Shown here: positions 25,747 through 64,000 of the stretch, piece by piece | Position numbering within the stretch: position 1 is the stretch's first letter | Layout: each line of letters starts with the position of its first letter | Virus record (IMG/VR): IMGVR_UViG_3300010165_000001 | Span: 64,001 to 128,000 of that record | Origin: a virus | Length of the DNA stretch: 64,000 bases | Direction: 5' to 3' (one strand) | The notes under the pieces: model-generated | Databases searched by the model: none | What the model saw: only the letters and a program-made list of their open reading frames with translations | Told to the model about the DNA's origin: nothing | Position numbers and translations under genes: made by a program

Positions 25747-26265
25747 TTAAAATTCTACAACCATTCGCTCTGTTGTAGTTACTTGTTCAGTTCTGTTTTG
25801 GAATTGTTTGTTATCATAGAACATTAAAGTACCTTGTGAATTTAACTCACTAGGCAATAATGCCTGTTTACCGATACCTGTTTTAGGTTCTACATCGATT
25901 GCGATTCCTGCTTGTCTATGTGTACCTGTAGGTAGTTCATCTCCAACTACTTTACTTTCAAAGTACACCCATTTAGCTCCTTCTGCTATAGCTTCTCCCT
26001 CACCAATCACTGTCCATGATTTGTTTCCGTAAGATATAATTTCTCTGTTTGAATCACTGTCTTTAGTTGGTCTAACTAATACAGCTTTTGTTACTTTCTT
26101 ATATCCGATTATATCATCTAATTTTGTTGTTCTTTCAGTAGGCTCAGGTGGTGCTTGTTCATTTGACCAAGGTGTTGGTCTACCGATTACTAAGTAAGTT
26201 GTATTAATCTTACTTATGATAAACTTAGCTAGTTCTACCCTAGCATTATAGGTTGTAATTGCCAT
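25747..26265 (-). CDS. Baseplate/fibre-associated structural protein (172 aa)
   Basis: Size and position match a 173-aa gene I recall in the phage K baseplate module. Confidence 0.5.
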   Translation of the reverse strand: MAITTYNARVELAKFIISKINTTYLVIGRPTPWSNEQAPPEPTERTTKLDDIIGYKKVTKAVLVRPTKDSDSNREIISYGNKSWTVIGEGEAIAEGAKWVYFESKVVGDELPTGTHRQAGIAIDVEPKTGIGKQALLPSELNSQGTLMFYDNKQFQNRTEQVTTTERMVVEF

Positions 26266-26339
26266 TTTGTTATTTCCCTTCTTTATAAGTTTTCTATCTG
26301 TTCTAATATAATATTATTATATCATATTATTGTGTTTTT

Positions 26340-29300
26340 TTAAAGTTCAATTATATCTAAACTATAAATTGTGCTTTCATTACCATCATAAGGTCTGACA
26401 TTTAATATTATAGTTTCATTTAGTCTAGGTTTATCACTTGTTTCATCTCTTGCTATAATTTCTCTTGTACCTACACCATTAATAACCTGTTCTGGATAAA
26501 TAAATGTTTCATTAAAGTTAGTATTCGAATTATATACAGAGATAAATACATTATCTTTGAAATCACCTTCAACAATAACTCTATATCTCTTACCTGTTTC
26601 TATAGGTTTAATTAAAGGATATTCAGCAAATTGTGATTGTGTTACTTTCTTCTCTTTATAACTATCTCTAATAATTAAGTCTCTTGTAGTTGTTTCTGTA
26701 GTAACTTGAGGTACATGAGTAATATTTATCTCTTTTGTACTTAGTTTTGTATCTGCTAATTCACCTAATGTTAAGTTAGAGTCTAATGTAAGTGATTGTT
26801 TATATACTGAAGGTACTAATGTTTTTATATCTACATCTGTATAGGTATTAATACTTTGTTTAGGTATCTTTATAACATCTCCTGTAGAGTTATCTATAGT
26901 TCCGTTTGCTACATCTTTTAATACTTTAGGTGTTGGGTTTTTATGCTCAGAGTAAATATCTACTTCTTGCCATAACGCATTAAAGAACCCATTAGGTAAG
27001 TCTACAATATTACCTATATCTTCCATCAATTTAGTTATTGTGAAATCTAAGAATGGTCTTATGATTACTTGACTAAATGGATTTAATGTTTGGTATGTTA
27101 AGTTCTTAATACCATACAAGTCAATTGTATCATTTTCTACGTGTGTTTCTCCTACTGGTAATGTAGTAAACTTCTTCATATTAAGGAAATCATTTCCATA
27201 TACTCCGTATTGTAAATTAACATTATTTAAGTCTGTTGTAGTTCTTAAACCTATAGATTGTATATCATTGTAGACCCCTGTGAACCTGATTGTCTTATCT
27301 AGAAATGACACCATATCTTCTGGGGAAGTGTTATAAGGTGTTGCTTTAGTTTCGTATTGTAATACAGTTTTACTAGGTTTTATATTACCTTCTATATCTT
27401 TAGCTATAATGTCTACATATTTATTGGGGTCATTAGCTCCATATATATCTTCAGGGTTAGGTTGGTAGGGTGTTGCCTTATTACCTAACTCCATTTTAAC
27501 ATCTTTCATTTCAAAGTCAAGGTCTTCGCTACCATTTGGTCTAAACTGTATGTGGGGCGAGCCTCCTGTATAAGAATATCCCTCTGCTTTAAAATAAACA
27601 GTTTCGTTTTCGTTATAATAAAAGTTATTACCGTCTTGTGAATAAAATCCATTCAGTGTTATCTTTAAAGGTTTTTTTGTCTTTAACTTAAATGATATAG
27701 ATATTTCTTCTAACATATAGCTAAATATTTCATTTAATTCATAAAAGGCTTTAACATCCCAGTCACCACCAGTAAGTTTTACTCGTGTATACCCATTAGA
27801 ACTCTTCTCTATCGTTTTTGTAGCTCCTCGAAAAGTGTTTATATGGTTATCTATATCTTGTGAGTTAAAAACTAAGTTTCTGTTAATACTATTATCATAC
27901 CCATCTGTTAACCTTAAATATTGCGTAGGTTGATAACCAGATTTAGTAATAATATCTCCATTATCTAATTCTATATCTTTTATAGCATCTAACTCTGCTA
28001 AGTAATCTGTTTCTTGATGGTTTTCTATTAATCCTTTAAATGGTTTTATTGTATAAACATCTTTTTCATATCTTCTAAATGTTAAATCAAAGTAACCTAT
28101 CCTTAATTCTGTATCTTCTTTAACAGGCTCAACTTCTAACTTAATAAATATAGTTAAGTTATCATTTAAATAATCTACTAAGTTACCTATTTTATTACCT
28201 ATATTTTTTTCTGTTAAAGTTAAAGTTTCCCTAGATACTATAACCCAAGAGTAAGACTCAAAATCGTAGATACAAAGTTTTACAGATACAGGATTTGAAG
28301 GTGAAACCATGGCTTGTATATCTAAGTCTAAACTAACTTCCCCAAAATAATTACTAACATAGTTAGTTAGTTCTCGTTCACTCATCCCTAAATTAGAAAC
28401 AACAATACCTTTTCTTCTTAAATATTCTATTGTATCTAAGTTAAAATGTATATTTGTTCGTTTATTATTTCCTTTAAGTACCAACTCTGGTTTTATATTA
28501 TCCCTAACTGATGTTTCTGTATAAAAGTCTTTAGCTAATTCTTCTCCTATGGCTTGGTTAAACATAGTAGATATTGTTGTGACGTAATCTTCCTTTGTTG
28601 GCTCATATTTACGTTGTGTTTGATAAGCGTAGTTATAAAATTCCCTACCAACCGTAGCAGAACCTGACAAAACGTCTAAACTATTAATTAAACTATTATT
28701 TGTTTTAAAAACATCTGTAATATCTTTAACTTTAGCTATACCTAAATTTAAATGCCCGTATAAAATTCTCCCATATCCTCTAAATATATCTACATCTTGG
28801 TATGTTGTTACTTTAGGATAACCTTTATAAAACACAGGTGTAATTATTTTATCTTCACCTAAGTCATAACTGCCATCATACGTAAAGTAAACTTTAACTC
28901 CAGCAGGTTTAAACTTGTTAATTTCATCAATAATTTCTAAAGGGAATGATTTACCGATTGTAATATCTATAACCGCAAACCTATAATAGTTACCCATTAA
29001 GTGGTCTTCACCATTTAAATGAGATTTATTTGTATAGAATATATTTTTAAAAGGCTCATATATATCTACATAAACATCTTCATCCTCTAAAAACCTTTTA
29101 ATAGCTCCTATAATAGAATTGTTTGTTCCTCTTTTTAAAAGTACATACTCAATAATTCTATCTCTATAAGTATCATCAAGTTCATTTTTCTTTCTAACTA
29201 ATCCGTACCAATCTCCATAAATATCTAAGTACTTTCCTGTAGCAGTACCTAAACTAGATTGTATTTTACTATCAATCGTTTCTTGTTCTAAATTATCTAA

Positions 29301-37900: not shown

Positions 37901-38136
37901 CCAAAAGGTCTTCCTTCTGGTGTTCTACCTGTAAATCCTCTTGGAAATGGTATAGAATATTGTCCATCTGTACCATTTACTCTTCCTGCATATGTTCTAC
38001 TTGTTCTTACTTCTACAGTACTGTATTGATAATTGACTTTCGTTATTGTACCATAAGTTAAACTATTAATTTTAAAATCATCTGAATCTGTTTTCTTTAA
38101 GTTACTACCTAAAGAAGATTGCATTTGTATTGCCAT
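34966..38136 (-). CDS. Baseplate hub/central spike protein with large C-terminal extension domains
   Basis: 1056 aa. The N-terminus (..YGTITKVNYQYSTVEVRT...IIPGMLVLLGFIEGESGNPIVLSIY) resembles a gp5/gp27-type OB-fold hub. The C-terminal ~180 aa resemble a concanavalin/LamG-like sandwich. The gene sits where phage K has its 848-aa GDPD-containing protein. Confidence 0.55.
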   Translation of the reverse strand: MAIQMQSSLGSNLKKTDSDDFKINSLTYGTITKVNYQYSTVEVRTSRTYAGRVNGTDGQYSIPFPRGFTGRTPEGRPFGSTPLIIPGMLVLLGFIEGESGNPIVLSIYSNPEDSKMLTPNPLESGDIRNDDIYTYGSMMFSIFPSLNYSFQNGNGTIVRSLNGNSFLSITSEDDEKPMATDFGIGTEYEDLMSSKYGNGEIIESRNQRAPDMLFKHQGDLNTNNHITMLQLTEQGTLRFSVLNTETNSRTSWEIDDQGNQRTLSQKDDLILDNGQDYVEYGIDKEHNDFYIKNGNHDLRFTDQGLLLDGKPMIDDIDNQIDEQLSKLKAIQESLEGVNNLLDGAGKQNLLEVIDASERSEQRSKSALEQVTGLNTQVQQVSSRVEGNITNLNNFMSNINKYVKTNDEIIRELVTFKDDLNVDSIPEIKQTEEKYRQTTFRDIKIHADLPFKFKDYDSIITSENLSYLFPQGLAIHNGYTYIIHSAPESGSKRLIVVYDEFFKYVNMFFAGTTGGEGLHVETEGNKTYLYARTDSFNIGKFDVTSLRNIQEKSTLTPIKEFNLNAYMNFFRTKDGWGVEYYNQTKGVYLQRDTIVFFNKDFSKRTGYLWINPSNSTLWSDDLLTGVTNNSAKKQGMTLVNNTIVQTLGGNYNPSRDTEIHTYHLQGVQEISPSGDIMNDYTYHPQELKDYLSAQGKTADIIEHEGAFSYNNRLFSIIVYKGRTNANANKQGVLLVEYKPKEKDYTFNAIGEPFLAPTANYNPYKTNIDNKLVNEYTGEFINTIEELIIYMKDTFQDNIVFYSSKITIKDFGGGSIPTGCRVEVENMNNLTYYVKIKGLNYDYFYQVSYKRSTGELTKYTPKYEYATKDDIKDLSSPISDTEKPKDYTAIFTRNSSITDRGVTFNNNEPIYKDGGIEVFKSLSETLQVPNSVLNLNEGTLSIQIEPTTLSNNTIIDGGGILVQTVNSGQVKATVGGVTIQSSKKIKENTFNKVTVKWSTNTKVLCIMIDNEVDNVTNYISYTGTISDTIKLSTTVDSVIKDLYFVDKPLPTYKIKEGL

Positions 38137-39039
38137 TTATTTACCCTCCACGTAAAAATCAAATATAGGGTCTTTATATCTCATAACTCTTCCGTTAAAA
38201 GCTTCCCAAAGTTCTTCTAACTTATAAGTTTTCACTTTTCCAGATTCGTCTATAGGGAAGTGACCTATAATAGTTGCTACTTCTCCATCTCCCATATAAA
38301 TACCTACATTATCGTCATTAATACCAAAGAATATTAAATCTCCTTCATTAATTTTTGAAATGTCATCTTTATATTTATGACCCTTTTCTAGTATAGTATT
38401 AAAATTCTCTCCTGTCAAGACATTAACACTTCTTAATGGATATTCTAATTCTACATCTACATTATAGTATAGCCAATAGATAAAGTTATATGAATCACAA
38501 GGAAGTTGTTTATCATCATTCACTAATGGATTCTGAAAGGGATAACCTTTATACATATAATAAATATTATCTAAATTAACGTTACCTATCATATATTCAT
38601 AGTAAGCTTGTTCTGACTTTCTAAGTTCAGGTTGTAGGTCTTCATAATCCATATAGGTAGCATATATTTGCTGTATGTCTGAAGATAAGGAACTTATAAA
38701 ATAACTTGATTTAAGTGTTCTTTCTACTTTTATTTGTTCAGTATGTTCTGATTCAGCCTTCTTACCATCATAAGTATGTGTTAAGGTTCTTACCTTAATA
38801 TTTACTTCATATAATCCTGTTTGTATTTCTTTTATATCATAGTTAGAGTTTGTTATTATCATTTGTTGAATTACATTAGAGTAAGGTCTTAAATGTGAAG
38901 CTGAATCTACTGTATCTGTTTCTGCTATTTGTTCTAATTCTTTTTGTTTATCAAATATTGTATCTTCATCAAAATCTTTTTCATATTCATATATATTTTT
39001 AATATACATCTCTACTATTTTATTAATATCTGTATCCAA
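38137..39039 (-). CDS. NlpC/P60-like putative tail peptidase
   Basis: 300 aa. It has a candidate catalytic Cys (QLPCDSYNFIYWLY) and a distal ..EGDLIFFGINDDNVGIYMGDGEVATIIGH.. segment typical of NlpC/P60. Size and position match the 295-aa hydrolase I recall in phage K. Confidence 0.5.
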   Translation of the reverse strand: MDTDINKIVEMYIKNIYEYEKDFDEDTIFDKQKELEQIAETDTVDSASHLRPYSNVIQQMIITNSNYDIKEIQTGLYEVNIKVRTLTHTYDGKKAESEHTEQIKVERTLKSSYFISSLSSDIQQIYATYMDYEDLQPELRKSEQAYYEYMIGNVNLDNIYYMYKGYPFQNPLVNDDKQLPCDSYNFIYWLYYNVDVELEYPLRSVNVLTGENFNTILEKGHKYKDDISKINEGDLIFFGINDDNVGIYMGDGEVATIIGHFPIDESGKVKTYKLEELWEAFNGRVMRYKDPIFDFYVEGK

Positions 39040-47256: not shown

Positions 47257-48262
47257 TTATGAGGCTTTATCTGATGCTGTAAGATAAGAAACAATTTTGT
47301 TACGAATAGAATCGTTATTTCTATCCTTCTATATGTTTCCATATAGTTCAGACTATATCATCACCTTAAAATTGAAGGTGTCTCCCATTTCCAATCACTT
47401 GATTGTACGTCCGCAGACTAGTCGTTGCACGTTCTCTTGTTTTAAGAGCTTCGCTCATGATTGCCCTCAACATTACTTGTTAGGGGTTTCCATGAATTAG
47501 AGAGATTTGCTATAACCATTTCTGATTATAGGAGCTTTTTACCTACTCAATACTTTCTGTAATCATTTCATTGGTATTAATTTCTTCGTCCAATATCTTC
47601 ATACAAGGTCGTTAATCTTGTACAGTTCTCTAATGAACTTCTCTATGTTTCCATAGATGATGAGACTATATCACAATCCTATAAGGATTCTTTTCTTTTC
47701 CATTTAACAAGGGTTTATTTGGTAATTACCCAACACCTTGACCACTTGGTTGTACACTTACTCCCTTTGAATAATCAATTAGGTTTCTGTTAGTCGTTTG
47801 GCATTTATGATTCTAGGAATCAATTTAGCACAGGATTGCCATATACTTAATGTACTTAGGTTTCCCTGTTTAGAAAAGTTTTTCGATAAGGATTACTCCT
47901 TAAAGCTACAACTTATTATAGTTATTTGCGCTGCAACCATGATAAGCTATGATTACACTCTTAGTTAAGTTATCTACAACTAAAATGTCGATAACATCTT
48001 TTTTAAGGATTTCTTCACCTAAAGAAGCATATCCTAATTTTGCGAAGTTTTCTTTTTTCATTCGTAATCTTTCTATCGTCACTGTACCTTCATATCTAAG
48101 GTAAACGTGTTCTTGTGGCATGATAGAACCAATTTCATATACGCCCTCAGTACCGTATTCACGTGTACCTGAAGCTGATTGAGCTCTGCCTACAATTTTA
48201 CCCTTAATCATTAGATAGACGGTATTACCAGTGTGAATACTTTGTTTAGCTTCACTTGCCAT
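47257..48262 (-). CDS. Tail tube protein, split into three exons (47918..48262, 47545..47590, 47257..47291); the spliced product is 141 aa
   Basis: The track ORF 47906..48262 ends prematurely at ..CSANNYNKL*. The downstream pieces encode DEEINTNEMITESIE and (F)SYLTASDKAS*. Together these restore the C-terminus I remember from the 142-aa phage K tube protein (..NNYNETWQTNEIVTEEIEFSYLTASDKART). Confidence 0.8.
47292..47544 (-). ncRNA. Group I intron 2 in the tail tube gene (ORF-less, 253 nt)
   Basis: Minus-strand elements: IGS GCTC pairing with exon GAGT, P2 CTATAA/TTATAG, GGCAATCATGAGCGAAGCTC, R GTGCAACGACTAG (47419-47430), S GATGATATAGTCTGAAC (47346-47362), and the hairpin CTATATGGAAACATATAG. 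It ends ..AAAATTG. It resembles, from memory, the crystallised Twort orf142-I2 ribozyme almost block for block. Confidence 0.85.
47591..47917 (-). ncRNA. Group I intron 1 in the tail tube gene (ORF-less, ~327 nt)
   Basis: Minus-strand core elements: CAGGGAAACC..GGCAATCCTGTGCTAA, R-like GCCAAACGACTAAC (47791-47802), S-like GTGATATAGTCTC (47662-47674), and a GAAA-capped hairpin CTATGGAAACATAG. The terminal nucleotide is G (47591). The P1 hairpin CTAT|AATAAGTTGTAG places a U.G pair at the splice site. Boundaries are +/- a few nt. Confidence 0.8.
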
Positions 48263-58967: not shown

Positions 58968-61733
58968 TTATTTAATTGAACCCCAAAGCTTTCCTAAGCC
59001 TTGATTTGGAGGAGCTACGCCATTCCATGTACGTATAGGAAGATAATATCTTTTCCCTTTCCAAGTATAACCTACCCACACTAAAAAATCTTGCAACATA
59101 ACTTCATCATAATCACAGTAACCTCCTGGTTGGAAGTTATAAGCTACTGGACAACTTCTAAATGGACCAGTTGTTCTAACTACAATAGGTTGATTACCAT
59201 TAGTAAATCTAGCTTTCTCACTCATATACCACGTACCATAACTATTACGTTTCCATTTTCCTGCTACAGTTGATTTAGTATTACTTGCAGAACCTGTTTT
59301 ATTAGATACAGTAGCTGTTGGTACTTTACCTGCTTGATAAGCTCTGATTTGCTTGATGAAATAATCTTTAAGTTTAAGTTGTATTGCTTTTGAAGGTACG
59401 CCTTGTGTCACAGGGTCGAAACCAGTGTGTAGTTTCATACTTCTGTGAGGGCAGCTAGTCTGTGAAAATTCCATATGGAGTCTCACTGTATTACGGTTGG
59501 CTTTTAACCCCCACTTATTTAATAAACGTGCAGTTTCTTGAAATGCTGCTTGTTCATTTGCTAGGAATACTTTATCACTTGCACCAATAGATTGACATAT
59601 CTCTATACCATAATAATTTTTATTACCATTTTGGTTAGCTGTATGCCATGCTATACGACTTTCTGGTAGTGCTTGATATACTGTATTACCACTGATATAT
59701 GAATGAGCTACACCTGCTTCTAATCGAGATAAAGGTGCATTTACTAATCCATTATGATACGCTTCTGCTGTTGCACCTACACTACCCGCATCATTGTGTA
59801 GAACAATGCCTTTAGGTGTATATCCACGATTAGGTAAACGATAACCTTTTACTTCATCACGAATATAAGTTAGTTTTTTAGCTTTTTTCTTAGCTGTTGA
59901 TTTTTTAGTTGTTGTTTTTTTAGTTGTTGTTTTTTTAGTTGTTGTTTTTTTACTTGGAGTTTTCGTTTTTGCCTCTTCTTTGTAATATGGTCTAATGAAC
60001 CATTGAGGAAAATCGTATGTGTGTGTTACTCTTGTTGCTGCTTCCCAACCTGTTCCTCCTTTAGCTGAACCGCTTGTCCAACCTCCGCCTTGCCAATTCT
60101 GGTCAAGACTTACAAACTTCATTAAGTTTCCGTCAGCATTTCCATTTAAAACTATAGATACGTGACCATACCCGCCACCGTAGGATGAGTTAAAAATTGC
60201 CAAGTCACCTGGTTTAGCTTTAAATGAAGATGTATTATTATATACCTTAGCTATACCTTTAAAATTATTTGAGTTAGGTATGTCTTTTGCTCCTACACCT
60301 TTAAGACTTAAACCAAATAATTTATTCCAATATTCGTTAGCTAGGTCAAAACACTGGTACCCGTACCCGATATGTTTACTAAGAACCCTTTCCATTTATA
60401 TATTTCTATATAAACTTGTATAAATTCATAGTGATTATTAATTAATCCTTATAGGTTTCCTATAAGACCAGACTATATCATTATATAGGTTAAATAAATT
60501 TAAAAGTATACTTTTTTCCCTCTATGTTTTTACAGAATTCCCTTTTTCCTTCTGCTACTTCTTTAATATGACTTAGTGTAGCTATATTTAAAGACCTTTT
60601 TACCTCAGCCATAGATTTATATTCTTTATTTGTCTCAAAACAATAAAATTTAAGTGTTCCTCTACCATCTTTATAATACTTATCATATATATTATACCTT
60701 TTTGCTAAAGTTATTACATAACCTAGGTCTACATTATATTTTTTAGATATTTGAAAAGCATTTATACCTTTTTTGTAATCTTCTAGTATTTTCAATATAT
60801 TCATATCTTTACCTTCTATTATAAGTTCTAGTATACTTTCTTTTCTTTTTCATCTATCGAAGGTAAAATACTCTCTTTTATTGAATCCTCTATATATTTA
60901 AAATAACTTTTAGAACAATCGAGTTCAACTAATTTTATATTATTTTCTTCACAATACTGTCTTTTTTCTTCATCAGATTGTTTAGTATTTTTATAAGAAT
61001 CTACCCAATTAGAACTAATATTATTTGTATAATGTTGTTCACCATGTGTTTCGATTGCTATGTTTAGTTTTGGTAAATAAAAATCTATAAATCTATTTTT
61101 ATTGTGAAGTTTATATTGATGTTCAAATTCTATATCTTTAGTCTTTAAATAAGAATATATAAATCTTTCAGGGTAGCTCATGTAGTCTTTACAGTAAGGA
61201 CAAGAAAAACCATTATTATATAAGTTATGTGCCCGAACCTTCTTTTCATATTTACAAATAGGACATACACAATCTATATACCTATCACTACCTCTACTGT
61301 AGTATTTTGCATCATTTTTATTTTTAAAATATTTTAATAAATGTGTTTCATTATAGAGGGAATTTTCTTTTTTTTACTCTTATGTTTTCACCTTTAAATT
61401 TCATTTTACATTTCTCCTATATACTCATCACTGTCCGTCAATTGACGATACTTAGTCGTTGAACCTTATTCTTCTTTCACTATATCATGAGAATAAATTA
61501 ATGTCAATAGTTAATCCAAAGAATCTTGGCTGCTGATTGCCTAATCCTTAGTATTTTTGAACTATCACGCTTACCGTTACCAGTTACGTTGTAGTTACTA
61601 AGGCTCTAAAGGGTTCCCAGCAATTCAATGAGTTTTACATGGACTCGTAAGTTAATCCATCAAAATCTATTTTCTTACCTTCTAAACTTTTGACAAATGC
61701 TACTGCTTCTTTTTCTGTGAGTTTTGCAACCAT
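58968..61733 (-). CDS. Endolysin (CHAP, amidase_2, SH3b), split into exon 1 (61655..61733) and exon 2 (58968..60367); the spliced product is ~492 aa
   Basis: Exon 1 (ATG at 61733, 2 nt after the holin stop) encodes [26 protein letters not shown]. Exon 2 continues [13 protein letters not shown].. (CHAP Cys), GYGHVSIV (CHAP His), an amidase domain ([22 protein letters not shown]) and an SH3b tail. The joined product reads DFDG(W/L)YGYQC, a canonical CHAP N-terminus. Confidence 0.85.
59885..59960 (-). repeat. 15-bp in-frame tandem repeat encoding the (KKTTT)n inter-domain linker of the endolysin
   Basis: ttttttagttgttgt occurs three times exactly (59901-59945), flanked by degenerate copies. The encoded protein is [26 protein letters not shown]. 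Confidence 0.8.
60490..60804 (-). CDS. Intron ORF 2: HTH plus NUMOD-like DNA-binding module, typical of homing-endonuclease C-termini
   Basis: 104 aa. It has an N-terminal HTH (..[27 protein letters not shown]..) followed by [31 protein letters not shown].., which resembles NUMOD1/IENR-type modules. Confidence 0.55.
   Translation of the reverse strand: MNILKILEDYKKGINAFQISKKYNVDLGYVITLAKRYNIYDKYYKDGRGTLKFYCFETNKEYKSMAEVKRSLNIATLSHIKEVAEGKREFCKNIEGKKYTFKFI
60828..61404 (-). pseudogene. Intron ORF 1: zinc-ribbon plus Vsr/DUF559-like PD-(D/E)XK homing endonuclease, with its frame broken at an A8 run
   Basis: AGGAGA-N8-ATG (61404) opens [12 protein letters not shown]. After the A8 run (61368-61375) this frame hits TAA at 61351-61353. 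The +1 frame continues [71 protein letters not shown].. to 60828. The track shows only the part from the internal Met at 61181. Confidence 0.55.
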
Positions 61734-61734
61734 C

Positions 61735-62292
61735 TTATTTATCATCCCTTTCTAAATTGTCAGGGTCAATTGTAGTATCTAATGGTGTATCATCATGAAG
61801 TTTACTTCCACCTAAAGGTGTACTATCGTCATCTTCATACTCAGAAACATCATATTCTACCTCGTCTGAATCATCTGTAAAAGGTTCAGAAGTATCGAAT
61901 TCTTCTGGTTCTTTTTCTTTACGCTCTGGAGCTACATCTGCAAGTGAACTATCATTTTGCCATTGAACAAATTCGTTAGGGTCTTTATCATTTCTAGGTT
62001 TTGTGTAATCAGTTCTTACAATCTCACTATCTTTTGCACCCTTACTGTTAGGGTCTACTGAAACACCTAACAATCCAAGGATTAAGAAAATAAACTCAAT
62101 AATTTTACTTGAGTTAGCTGTGATATCGTCTACTTGAGCTGATAAGTCTACACCTATTAATCCACCGAATGATACAGCAGCACTACCTAAAATACCTACA
62201 ACACCTGTCCAAAAATAAGGACTACGTACACGTGTAGATAAGTTTTGACCTAAAAATACTTTAGGCTTTTTCTGTTTAGTATCTTTTGACAC
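61735..62292 (-). CDS. Holin
   Basis: 185 aa with a GTG start after TAGGAGTG. It has two predicted TM helices (FWTGVVGILGSAAVSFGGLIGV; IIEFIFLILGLLGVSV) and a long acidic C-terminal tail. It lies immediately upstream of the endolysin start. Confidence 0.7.
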   Translation of the reverse strand: MSKDTKQKKPKVFLGQNLSTRVRSPYFWTGVVGILGSAAVSFGGLIGVDLSAQVDDITANSSKIIEFIFLILGLLGVSVDPNSKGAKDSEIVRTDYTKPRNDKDPNEFVQWQNDSSLADVAPERKEKEPEEFDTSEPFTDDSDEVEYDVSEYEDDDSTPLGGSKLHDDTPLDTTIDPDNLERDDK

Positions 62293-62318
62293 TATCTATC
62301 ACTCCTATAATATTATAT

Positions 62319-62355
62319 AAAAAAATCCATTAAAGACTTTTAATCTTCAATGGAT
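62319..62355 (-). terminator. Rho-independent terminator
   Basis: The stem atccatt(a)aaga / tctt(c)aatggat is followed on the minus strand by T7, after the 62368 stop. Confidence 0.6.
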
Positions 62356-62367
62356 AATATAGCAATT

Positions 62368-62553
62368 TTATTCTACTATTGTATTTAATTTTTTAATAAT
62401 ATCGGAAGTCTCTTTTGTATCAAAATCTGATAGACTAACTCCATCAAGGATTTCTAACTTATCTAATAAGTCTTGTTTGTCTTTAATTTTATCTTCCATT
62501 AAACCTTTTACAATTAAACTATTTACATAGTTAGTTTGTTTATAACTAGCCAT
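62368..62553 (-). CDS. Hypothetical protein (61 aa)
   Basis: Minus-strand ORF overlapping the upstream gene by 8 nt. No motif recognised. Confidence 0.5.
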   Translation of the reverse strand: MASYKQTNYVNSLIVKGLMEDKIKDKQDLLDKLEILDGVSLSDFDTKETSDIIKKLNTIVE

Positions 62554-62782
62554 TTAAAATAACTTCCTCATTCACTTTTATTTCTTTTAATTTACAATCA
62601 ATATTAATTACATATTTATATTGACTAATATATTTCTGTGCTAATTCTTTAGTGCTAAAGTAATATTCTTCTTTTGATATAGAAACATTTCCTTCTTCTT
62701 TCGAGTTATCTACTTGAATATCAGAAACTTTTTTATACTTAGTTACTTTAAATATACTAAACTTAGGTAATTTTTTATCCAT
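62546..62782 (-). CDS. Hypothetical protein (78 aa)
   Basis: Minus-strand ORF with RBS GAGAGGGGA upstream of the ATG. No motif recognised. Confidence 0.5.
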   Translation of the reverse strand: MDKKLPKFSIFKVTKYKKVSDIQVDNSKEEGNVSISKEEYYFSTKELAQKYISQYKYVINIDCKLKEIKVNEEVILNG

Positions 62783-64000
62783 ATTAAATCCCCTCTCATC
62801 AGATAAGTTATATGTAATTTCCTATACATTCGTATAGTTTTCTCCTTTTAATATATGTAAAAGAGAATTGATAAAGCTTGAAACAGGGGCAATTCAAGAC
62901 TCGGTATCTCAAGCCATCACTTTATATTCTATGACACTTCTTCTGAATATAAAGCTGTCCGATAGCTTGTATGTAAGAGAGTTATTGTTAGCCAAGGGGA
63001 ACTCTCAAAACCCTCAATCACTTTTCACGAACGGAAAGACTTAATGAAAAGTCTAAATTTCAAATATACCCTTACCTTTAGTTATTGTTTTATACTGGAA
63101 AACAGGGTAAGGACTAAAAAACAGTCATATGTTAAAATGTTTATGTATGGTATGGAGCCCACTATTCATCCATACTAATTATTTAAAGTGGGTTTATAGG
63201 TATATTACTTCGATTTGTCTGTAGAATGAATCTATACAAAAAACAAAGGGAAAGGAGGATTTATATGATTTAAATTTTGATAACTACAATATCTTTTCAT
63301 ATACCTAGGACTTAATATAACAATAAAAAATGTAAGGAATAAAACGAAGGAATTATTGTTATTAGATTACTAATGTAATCAAAGCACCTGTTATAACTCA
63401 TCTCACCGAGAACCTGATTATAAGACCTATTATTAAGTGAATCACTACGCTTGACTCTATTAAGGAGCTACCTTAAGTCCATCTAACGCAATCCAAAAGG
63501 ATAATGTGATACTAACATAATAGTTAGTAACGTTCACATGGTTGAAGAAATAATTTATTTGGTTTCACTTTTATATTTACCAAATATAGTTTTTGAAATG
63601 TAGATTTATGCTACTTGTACTGATAACCTCTATTATCAAACACATTTCTGTGCTCCAACTACAATAAGTCGTTATAGCGTATCTTCATAGGATTCCGCTA
63701 AGACCCTAAGAAGAAGTTAAACTCTAGCTGTTATCATACTCTACAGTCCTTATAATCAAGTACCAAGTATACCAATCGTATTAAACAATACTCATGACGA
63801 CCTACCCTACCGATTGACTAATCCGATAGGTTTTAGTTCGTTTGATTATCTTGTACCTTATGGGTACCAATCCATTATTCAGTCATTATAACAAGTGCTT
63901 TCAATACACTAATATTTATGTATGAACAGAGAGAACTTAATCCCTCTGAACATATAGGGTGGGTATGTGGTTTAAGTAGTGTATCTCAACTACTTAAGTA
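62783..64000. other. ORF-free, GC-enriched, hairpin-dense region; candidate structured RNA(s) or a cis-acting region
   Basis: No ORF of 60 aa or more exists in any frame over 1.2 kb. All three minus-strand frames hit stops within 15 nt of the right edge. Local GC reaches ~45% (for example 62881-62920), against ~30% in the flanks. It holds many short perfect hairpins, listed in the findings. Confidence 0.35.

Follow-up and report, generated by a model that had tools for sequence, protein, structure and literature searches.

A divergent ROOL-family RNA predicted upstream of the lysis genes in a Baoshanvirus-type Staphylococcus phage

The gene-free region upstream of the lysis genes

The viral DNA analysed here, 64,000 nucleotides (nt) in length (IMG/VR record IMGVR_UViG_3300010165_000001, positions 64,001 to 128,000; hereafter the window), is Staphylococcus phage DNA of the subfamily Twortvirinae, with vB_SurM-PSU4 (PSU4; 97% identity) and vB_SsapH-Golestan101-M (Golestan101), both Baoshanvirus, as the nearest records. 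Its right-hand end is a gene-free region (62783–64000) upstream of a series of minus-strand genes in the list of open reading frames (ORFs), which encode proteins of 78 amino acids (aa; 62546–62782) and 61 aa (62368–62553), a holin (61735–62292) and a split endolysin (ORF 58968–60395, with exon 1 at approximately 61635–61745). Within this region, the minus strand of 63373–63909 very probably specifies a 537-nt non-coding RNA of the ROOL family, the Baoshanvirus-type orthologue of lncRNA2 known from Kayvirus, and the adjoining stretch 62783–63372 is separate from it.

The initial annotation, made from the sequence alone, had described the whole region as devoid of ORFs, dense in hairpins and enriched in GC, and had proposed a large structured RNA. 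The lack of ORFs was confirmed: none of at least 60 aa is present, the longest one overlapping the region being 58 aa (62868–63044, plus strand, TTG start), and a stop codon closes each of the three minus-strand frames no more than 15 nt from the right edge (TAC TTA AGT AGT TGA; ACT TAA; CTT AAG TAG). In PSU4, the counterpart of this gap extends approximately 32 nt past the window edge, where a 100-aa gene on the minus strand terminates. The nine hairpins originally listed were all recovered, at most 1 nt away from where they had been placed, and the density of hairpins is above chance, with 27 stems of at least 6 compared to 12.7 ± 3.7 in dinucleotide shuffles and 13.0 ± 4.6 in other 1218-nt windows, 1% of which attained 27 (for stems of at least 7, 11 versus 3.5 ± 2.0).

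The GC enrichment, on the other hand, could not be reproduced, as the region contains 31.7% GC compared to 31.0% for the window on average, and a GC content at least as high occurs in 35% of windows of equal length; the RNA core itself has 33.5%. The region appears GC-rich because the two small ORFs adjoining it (62368–62782) have only 22%. The value of 47% quoted for 62881–62920 is correct, but describes a hand-picked 40-mer. Since the enrichment was not confirmed, the claim that the region shares a signature only with the introns of the window is likewise unsupported. Rfam identified a group I intron only at 47329–47927 in the window, and neither group I nor group II models matched within 62300–64000; no split ORFs flank the region in the ORF list, and ARAGORN found no tRNA or tmRNA gene in the whole 64-kb window. 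The proposed structured RNA was found in the right-hand 44% of the 1218 nt (63373–63909), for which the initial interpretation was essentially right and is supported, and not in the remainder, even though seven of the nine listed hairpins lie within 62822–63175, i.e. outside the conserved RNA. The strand, which had been left open, is minus for the RNA.

Conservation and fold of the RNA

Searches with megablast and blastn showed that only window positions 63393–63889 are widely conserved, with matches of 67–93% identity in 314 Staphylococcus/Mammaliicoccus phage (Twortvirinae) records. This core is conserved across all Twortvirinae genera and is unannotated in most of the listed records, with short 'hypothetical protein' calls overlapping it in a minority.

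An alignment of 25 homologues in RNA sense (A3; MAFFT) was assembled from GenBank phages, IMG/VR and metagenomes, covering approximately nine lineages, with Kayvirus, Silviavirus, Sepunavirus, Twortvirus, Sciuriunavirus and Baoshanvirus as named genera, and the structure was derived with RNAalifold plus two manually added pseudoknots. It comprises 127 base pairs in 19 helices, including the two pseudoknots. Standard pairs made up 98.0% of cells, compared to 79.4% in shuffled alignments and 38–42% when the partners were slid; 87 pairs were changed on both sides (58 shuffled, 12–23 slid), and the covariation score was 0.566 (0.208 shuffled, approximately 0.07 slid). None of 500 shuffles attained any of the observed measures. 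Both conservation and covariation are thus found among related phages. Several hairpin arms of the 3' domain were misregistered by MAFFT between lineages, and these were documented per lineage and kept out of the pair counts; the corresponding helices are clearly compensatory when followed lineage by lineage. As G–U cells far outnumbered A–C cells in the structure (341 versus 28, approximately 12:1), the RNA is assigned to the minus strand, for which the z-score of the minimum free energy was also lower (−5.4, compared to −3.7 for the plus strand).

The same asymmetry bears on whether the region could act at the DNA level, as a replication origin, a packaging site or a terminal-repeat boundary. 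Such an element would account for the lack of ORFs and the richness in inverted repeats, but compensatory changes that allow G–U and not A–C pairs are the signature of a single-stranded RNA made from one strand. Moreover, the homologues are abundant discrete transcripts (see below), the region is internal to the genome in all relatives, and neither iterons nor direct repeats were seen in the alignments (without a scan dedicated to repeats), so that a DNA-level element appears highly improbable. Together with a cluster of small RNAs, these were the alternatives offered in the initial annotation, and all are unsupported for the RNA core. Even less credible is that the sequence encodes several small proteins, as implied by 'hypothetical proteins' of 30–40 aa annotated in 184DA, MSShimriz1 and WIL-1. 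No ORF is kept in position, strand or frame across lineages, the longest one within the window RNA being 25 aa, the variability has no codon (3-nt) periodicity (0.69, 0.65, 0.69), and the authors of a study on Listeria phage CKA15 withdrew their own coding sequence (CDS) calls (PMC12282133).

The RNA, read from 63909 to 63373, is closed by helix 1 (P1), whose 5' arm GUGUAUUGAAAGCACUUGUUAUAA (63886–63909) pairs with the 3' arm UUAUAACAGGUGCUUUGAUUACAU (63373–63396); these arms delimit the gene, for which nhmmer gave a full-length match. Fourteen of the 22 pairs in P1 are changed on both sides, and the arms of the Baoshan and K types are wholly unlike in sequence, with complementarity kept. The terminal helix is formed by 5' GUGUAUUGAAAGCACUUGUUAU and 3' AUAACAGGUGCUUUGAUUACAU in the window, by AUACAACUAAAUAUCUGAGCAU and AUGCUUGGAUAUUUAGUUGCAU in phage K, and by a third arm pair in Romulus. 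The 5' domain (63764–63883, minus strand like all parts of the RNA; helices 2–8) consists of the P2/P3 hairpin (63855–63883) and the P4 junction (63764–63853), which is arranged around the hairpins P5/P6 and P8. The P6 hairpin covaries (CCUAUCGG/UCGGUAGG, CAGUAG/CUAUUG, CUAAAG/CUUUAG), and its loop carries a 43-nt hairpin insertion in PSU4; the insertions specific to single lineages are hairpins in loops, as is also the one of approximately 36 nt in Romulus and in phage K, where it is an extra element compared to the window RNA.

The central and 3' domains are enclosed by two long-range helices, P9 (helix 9; 63743–63760 with 63413–63430) and P10 (helix 10; 63738–63741 with 63435–63438), which together comprise 22 pairs, 15 of them compensatory, and are the counterpart of the {{{ }}} helix at positions 170–190 / 514–540 of the Rfam ROOL model. 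The central ROOL core (63599–63736; helices 11–15), which carries the invariant GUACAAGUAGCAUAAAUC, contains P11 (63725–63736 with 63621–63632), the P12 hairpin (63682–63714) with a pseudoknot between 63696–63699 and 63676–63679, the P15 hairpin with its invariant GAAA loop (63639–63654), and the pseudoknot UGUAG/CUACA (63659–63663 with 63599–63603). An A/U-rich linker of variable length and sequence (63542–63605) is closed by the helix GCAU:AUGU (63608–63611 with 63536–63539), in which one pair covaries perfectly (CG in 13 sequences, UA in 12) and the other three are invariant; it aligns with the large loop at approximately positions 344–405 of the Rfam ROOL model. Finally, the 3' domain (63397–63541; helices 17–19), where the Rfam ROOL alignment spans model positions 395–545, adopts per-lineage folds with compensatory arms. 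It contains the conserved motif UUCUUC...AUGUGAACGUU, a hairpin at 63510–63529, the small hairpin CCUUUUGG, the helix UUGCGUUAGAU/GUCAAGCGUAG (63453–63483) around GGAC-UUAAGG-UAGCU-CCUUAA-UAGA, and a GUGAGA-loop hairpin (63397–63410).

In the Silviavirus phage DELF3 (L021 1159–1714), the RNA looks broken: matches are confined to model positions 2–185 and 375–535, the central ROOL core having been lost or exchanged, and the RNA is overlain by an annotated CDS. Either this phage is a natural variant that has lost the function, or the assembly is at fault.

Relationship to Kayvirus lncRNA2 and to the ROOL family

In phage K, the match to the window RNA lies at 38032–38568 (blastn, 81% identity over 539 aligned columns). 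By RNA sequencing (RNA-seq), lncRNA2 has been mapped to the minus strand at 38,024–38,566 in phage K (PMC11598898) and at 38,000–38,525 in vB_SauM-515A1 (515A1; PMC7698491), and lnc002 of Finstrlova et al. encloses the lncRNA2 interval (PMC9241854). In three RNA-seq studies, lncRNA2 is among the two most abundant phage K transcripts, detectable from 2 min and climbing through infection (PMC7698491, PMC11598898, PMC9241854). It accounts for 8.4% of all counts (counts per million) in 515A1 (PMC7698491), and lncRNA1 and lncRNA2 together for 27% of reads in phage K, in which the downstream tRNAs are far scarcer than lncRNA2 (PMC11598898). The Kayvirus transcriptome papers gave no structure or function for lncRNA2 and likened it to ROOL and GOLLD only through its tRNA-side location and its abundance; a later review mentions sequence similarity, without data.

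The orthologues share their strand relative to the lysis genes and their synteny, with a zinc-ribbon gene upstream and the genes for the 61-aa protein, holin and endolysin downstream. They differ in the P1 arms, which are wholly, and compensatorily, replaced in the window RNA, in the promoter, which is a canonical −35/−10 promoter in Kayvirus and a putative extended −10 promoter approximately 90 nt upstream in the Baoshan type, and in the downstream sequence, where the Trp/Phe/Asp tRNA cluster of phage K gives way in the window to 530 nt rich in hairpins. The other long RNA of phage K, lncRNA1, is not similar to lncRNA2 and lacks a homologue in the window; according to Rfam, it is neither ROOL nor GOLLD. 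Its 3' end (L004 1133–1269, corresponding to phage K 13632–13768, minus strand) scored 43.4 bits against Rfam DUF3800-I, for which the gathering score is 44.2 (E 3e-5 in a small search).

ROOL was reportedly described by Weinberg et al. in 2017. At gathering thresholds, Rfam gave no hit at the RNA in the 64-kb window, and E-value searches of 1.7–30 kb from the window, PSU4, K, Romulus and Twort gave no ROOL hit, nor did P100; the window RNA is lost by the Infernal filters in larger searches. When 601 nt were searched, the Rfam ROOL model (RF03087) matched 63388–63854 on the minus strand (E 3.9e-10) over model positions 1–574, with P9/P10, P11, the GAAA hairpin, the linker helix and the 3' domain in register with the Rfam consensus. 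In the reciprocal direction, a hidden Markov model (HMM) of nine certified ROOL RNAs matched the window at 63461–63687 (minus strand, E 1.1e-10) as well as Twort (2.6e-16) and Listeria phage P100 (6e-13). A pattern shared by the Staphylococcus and Listeria RNAs (GTTG, hairpin, ATAA, AGTnnAAGTAGCnnAAA) led to further IMG/VR loci, which were matched by the Twortvirinae+P100 HMM (E 1.7e-16 to 3e-6) and which Rfam identifies as ROOL at 105–314 bits, mostly within tRNA arrays. Similarly, a covariance model of the central domain, built from ten Twortvirinae sequences only, recognised P100 (81.7 bits) together with ten certified ROOL RNAs (E 5.5e-11 to 0.06), and the control loci gave no match.

In ROOL RNAs, 24 of the 28 pairs in the central-domain helices are compensatory, and the pseudoknot arms covary family-wide (UGUAG/CUACA, UGCAG/CUGCA, UGUCG/CGACA, GUCCAG/CUGGAC, GUGCAG/CUGCAC). 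The core motifs (GNRA hairpin, AUAA, AGUACAAGUAGC..AAA, UUCU..GUGAAAGUU and GGUNGCUCC) are invariant in all 25 Twortvirinae sequences and are present, at the same Rfam model positions, in certified ROOL RNAs. Since the reciprocal HMM (nhmmer), Rfam-model and covariance-model tests agree, the RNA is classified, by sequence and model comparison, as a divergent and previously unrecognised ROOL member below the Rfam cut-off, which bears out the earlier suggestion of a ROOL- or GOLLD-class RNA in favour of ROOL. GOLLD (RF01998) is likewise a large ornate phage RNA found near tRNAs, abundant in lytic growth and cage-forming; its model, however, gave no hit at E up to 10 in the 601-nt and 1.7-kb searches. 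No published ROOL assignment of this RNA was found in the literature searched, and one may exist elsewhere. A pattern scan of GTDB species-representative genomes gave a single chance match, inside a Legionella coding region, and no prophage copies by that pattern; a loose 19-base pattern returned approximately 50 chance loci and two real ones.

The RNA resembles ROOL in its size (537 nt compared to a model of 574 positions) and phage origin, in its closing 5'–3' helix, nested long-range helices and multiple pseudoknots, in the GNRA-capped hairpin followed by (U)AUAA and the variable A/U-rich internal linker, and, through some of its relatives and through homologues respectively, in tRNA-island context and extreme abundance. 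It differs in that the 5' domain has much shorter peripheral hairpins and P1 is longer (22–24 base pairs), and in that its host phage is a strictly lytic Staphylococcus phage of the Herelleviridae. Transfer RNA genes directly follow the RNA in K, B2-102, PG16, 184DA and Romulus and flank it in P100, as they do most ROOL loci, whereas PSU4, Twort, DH2 and PG31 carry the RNA without adjoining tRNAs. In Romulus, a RAGATH-18 RNA (L005 18–107; 63.8 bits, above the gathering score) lies beside a transposase gene downstream of tRNA-Ser and the ROOL-like RNA.

In each of the five lineages checked (Kayvirus, 184DA, Sciuriunavirus, Silviavirus and environmental L044), and in two Baoshanvirus relatives, a gene upstream of the RNA (for instance L003 4834–5052 and L001 7751–7960, outside the window) codes for a conserved basic zinc-ribbon protein of 70 aa with a CxxC...CxxC pattern (phage K gp191, phrog_1257), which bears the label 'ribosome associated inhibitor A'. 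This protein may act as a partner or be no more than a neighbour by synteny, and it has numerous relatives in other large phages. Loci around such relatives led to Listeria P100, where an HMM match lies between tRNA-Pro and tRNA-Met, approximately 400 nt from the zinc-ribbon gene; among 80 IMG/VR loci beside zinc-ribbon homologues, no further RNA homologue but P100 was obtained. The P100 RNA is a full-length homologue with its own TTGACA-17-TATAGT promoter, a 23-bp closing helix and the shared core motifs, and it scored 208 bits by nhmmer against a profile to which it had been added, next to the 81.7 bits of the Twortvirinae-only covariance model. RNAs of this type occur in all 53 Pecentumvirus records (A511 26158–26779, minus strand) and coincide with what was reported as the most active non-coding region of phage CKA15 of the P100/A511 group (26,727→26,236), the expression of which rises progressively and for which the authors discussed small RNA or Y-RNA roles, not ROOL (PMC12282133). 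Compared to the window RNA, the CKA15/P100 RNA is only approximately 50% identical, is approximately 580 nt long, lies between tRNA-Pro and tRNA-Met and belongs to the subfamily Jasinskavirinae. Discrete transcripts are thus on record for homologues in phage K, 515A1 and Listeria CKA15 (PMC7698491, PMC9241854, PMC11598898, PMC12282133).

These comparisons also bear on the possibility that the RNA represents a new class of large phage RNA, which resembles ROOL only in a short core as a result of convergence or of a shared module. The sub-threshold Rfam score and the poor alignment of the 5' domain to the ROOL model would fit this view, as would the extent of the HMM similarity, which spans only approximately the central and 3' two-fifths to half (model positions 286–515). 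The Rfam alignment, however, is global, with the long-range helices, the linker helix and the 3' domain in register; size, closing helix, pseudoknots, the tRNA context of relatives and extreme abundance all match ROOL; and the P100 RNA bridges the Twortvirinae RNAs and ROOL over their full length. A new class is consequently considered unlikely.

With fold, strand and family demonstrated in the present analysis, several points still weigh against the account of the RNA as a ROOL member of like behaviour. The Rfam score of 54.3 bits is below the curated gathering score of 99.1, a cut-off which is an operational and not a biological feature, and the hit was obtained only in the 601-nt search, being absent at 1.7 kb (E ≤ 10) and 64 kb. 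The 5' domain is poorly aligned by the ROOL model, and P1 and P2/P3 fall outside the match. The central-domain helices were 82.7% paired in ROOL RNAs compared to 52% in shuffles, but the alignment behind this figure and behind the 24 compensatory pairs (A7) was fitted to the model and leans towards structure. There is no tRNA gene in the window, unlike at typical ROOL loci. The promoter discussed below is placed by reference to a relative and would lie outside the window, the abundance is that of homologues and not of this phage, and oligomerisation and function are extrapolated purely from one ROOL structure.

Flanking sequences, expression and possible role

The 5' flank or leader (63910–64000, minus strand) carries two hairpins (63972–63997 and 63927–63948), and no canonical sigma-70 site was found within 63890–64000. 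A putative promoter with the extended −10 box TGTGTTATAAT lies 2–12 nt past the window edge on the minus strand (PSU4 L001 7404–7413), and this box is conserved in PSU4, Golestan101, phiSA_BS2 and the IMG/VR contig L011. Judging from PSU4, transcription would proceed from this promoter just past the right edge and start near 63995, which would give an 86-nt leader with the two hairpins. A start site at TGTTATAAT, inside the P1 5' arm, was rejected: P1 covaries and is therefore transcribed. Other lineages have a TTGACA-17-TATAAT promoter, often together with a late −10 box. In Twort and DH2, the RNA promoter consists of a −35 box and an exact late −10 box, which fits continuous expression.

The sequence on the other side of the RNA, 62783–63372, is not part of the ROOL-like RNA. 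Approximately 50 nt past the 3' end, the late-promoter −10 box TGTTATATTA (63313–63322, minus strand), identical to the Kayvirus consensus (PMC7698491), faces the lysis genes. The window contains four exact matches to this box, all on the minus strand, compared to 1.1 expected. The one at 63313–63322 is kept in place in four relatives, and its phage K equivalent lies directly before the holin gene. The remaining 62783–63312 (minus strand), which separates the RNA from the 78-aa gene at the site of the phage K tRNA cluster, is non-coding, mosaic and dense in hairpins: 16 of the 27 stems of at least 6 fall within it, as do the seven hairpins of the initial annotation mentioned above. Its folding z-score has a modest strand bias (−2.2 for minus, −1.1 for plus). 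The stretch was found in 23 phage records only, all of the same lineage, and PSU4 and Golestan101 have insertions there which differ from the window. No Rfam family matched it, no tRNA remnants were detected in 62300–63400 (best E 0.03 by blastn with the phage K tRNAs), and the segment has no synteny with K, B2-102 or 184DA. Covariation is uninformative here because the five relatives are 91–98% identical, giving a covariation term of −0.04 and one compensatory pair. We consider, with moderate confidence, that 62783–63312 probably serves the late lysis transcript as a long 5' leader rich in hairpins, feeding the 78-aa, 61-aa, holin and endolysin genes.

The whole 1.2 kb might be regarded as a cis-acting 5' leader or riboregulator of the lysis genes or tRNAs instead of harbouring a trans-acting RNA, a reading that its location ahead of the holin and endolysin genes, which share its strand, the lack of an intrinsic terminator after the RNA and the probable leader nature of the downstream 530 nt would all suit. 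It is nevertheless very unlikely, as the downstream neighbours of the core vary by lineage (tRNAs, a transposase gene, small genes or nothing), a separate late promoter stands between the RNA and the genes, in phage K directly before the holin gene, and the downstream tRNAs of phage K are much scarcer than the RNA itself (PMC11598898). A discrete ROOL-family RNA followed by a separate lysis leader thus remains the preferred explanation.

Two modules in the downstream stretch recur elsewhere. A 69-nt hairpin module (62892–62960, minus strand) has 92–97% identity to sequences in SAP23, 184DA, B2-102, P68 and others, and in other Twortvirinae it is located in an insertion at the lncRNA1 locus, approximately 20 kb from their lncRNA2; in SAP23 (L077 2378–2639) and 184DA (L078), this insertion relative to phage K is approximately 260 nt long. 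It looks like a small mobile or recombining RNA module. The second, the UUGUUUUCCAGUAUAAAACAA module (63081–63132), forms part of a CCUUACC...GGUAAGG hairpin (63070–63132, minus strand) with one compensatory change, CG to UA, and occurs upstream of the RNA in K, 184DA and MSShimriz1. On the plus strand, 63245–63275 contains a strong Shine-Dalgarno sequence and a two-codon ORF (AAAGGAGGA-N7-ATG ATT TAA), and the minus-strand reading of 63250–63268, AAAUCCUCCUUUCCC, is similar to the 16S rRNA 3' end. Stretches rich in CCUCC are likewise present after the RNA in K, PG31, MSShimriz1 and DH2.

Further observations concern the neighbouring genes. The two parts of the endolysin gene, a 36-aa exon ORF (61635–61745) and a 475-aa ORF (58968–60395, minus strand), are approximately 1.24 kb apart, and the interval carries ORFs of 104 and 117 aa (60490–61181); no group I intron was detected in it at the Rfam gathering threshold. 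Golestan101 is likewise split, and the PSU4 lysin gene is uninterrupted (495 aa). Rfam 'Staphylococcus sRNA 808' (RF02897) matched with 80.2 bits inside the endolysin coding sequence (59149–59403, minus strand), probably because this family was built on prophage lysin sequence, and not as a separate RNA gene. Between the 61-aa and holin genes, a terminator-like hairpin (62325–62355, minus strand; 14 pairs plus a U-run) precedes TATAATATTA, which nearly matches the late −10 box. In PSU4, a second ORF-free gap of approximately 1.1 kb (L001 7960–9070, approximately 0.4–1.5 kb past the right edge of the window) contains two consensus sigma-70 promoters facing minus-strand genes (TTGACA-17-TATAAT and TTGACA-17-TATAGT) and a terminator-like hairpin, and it gave no Rfam match at E up to 1.

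As to how the RNA might work, the 22–24-bp helix ties its 5' and 3' ends together, and the second long-range helix encloses the core with its two pseudoknots and GAAA hairpin, followed by the short helix that closes the variable A/U-rich linker and by the 3' domain, an arrangement demonstrated by covariation. Such a closed, compact fold plausibly explains an extreme stability of the RNA. The closing helix may protect the ends or act as a processing stalk, which would explain why the downstream tRNAs are scarcer in phage K (PMC11598898). Accumulation from early to late infection, up to top or near-top abundance, has been observed in the homologues of phage K, 515A1 and Listeria CKA15 (PMC7698491, PMC11598898, PMC12282133). 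By analogy with the cryo-electron microscopy (cryo-EM) of ROOL, assembly into a homo-oligomeric RNA cage is most likely: ROOL env-120 forms a homo-octameric D4 RNA-only nanocage of approximately 280 Å with a disordered internal linker (Kretsch et al. 2025, PMC12286853), to which the window linker at 63542–63605 would correspond. The RNA would then act in trans and stoichiometrically during the lytic cycle, the leading guess for its cargo or target being the translation apparatus (tRNA, ribosomal subunits). A tentative extension, to which we attach a rather low probability, is that the lncRNA2-type RNAs constitute a Herelleviridae branch of ROOL which forms an RNA cage or ribonucleoprotein acting on host tRNAs or ribosomal subunits in lytic growth, possibly with gp191.

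The transcript itself had already been reported, without explanation; what is new is the link between the ROOL and lncRNA2 literatures. Membership of one family would explain the abundant transcripts of three Kayvirus studies and one Listeria-phage study, and would supply time-course expression data for ROOL, which was shown in 2025 to form an RNA-only cage bigger than the ribosome (PMC12286853). It also implies that a whole clade, present in more than 300 therapeutic-phage genomes, escapes the Rfam model and filters, and that the small CDSs annotated on this RNA in several GenBank records are spurious. Finally, it would place ROOL in strictly lytic, engineerable phages (K, A511/P100), in which knock-outs, pull-downs and cryo-EM are routine. 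If the Herelleviridae ROOL RNAs indeed act on the translation apparatus, the function of ROOL would become directly testable, because phage K and A511/P100 can be engineered.

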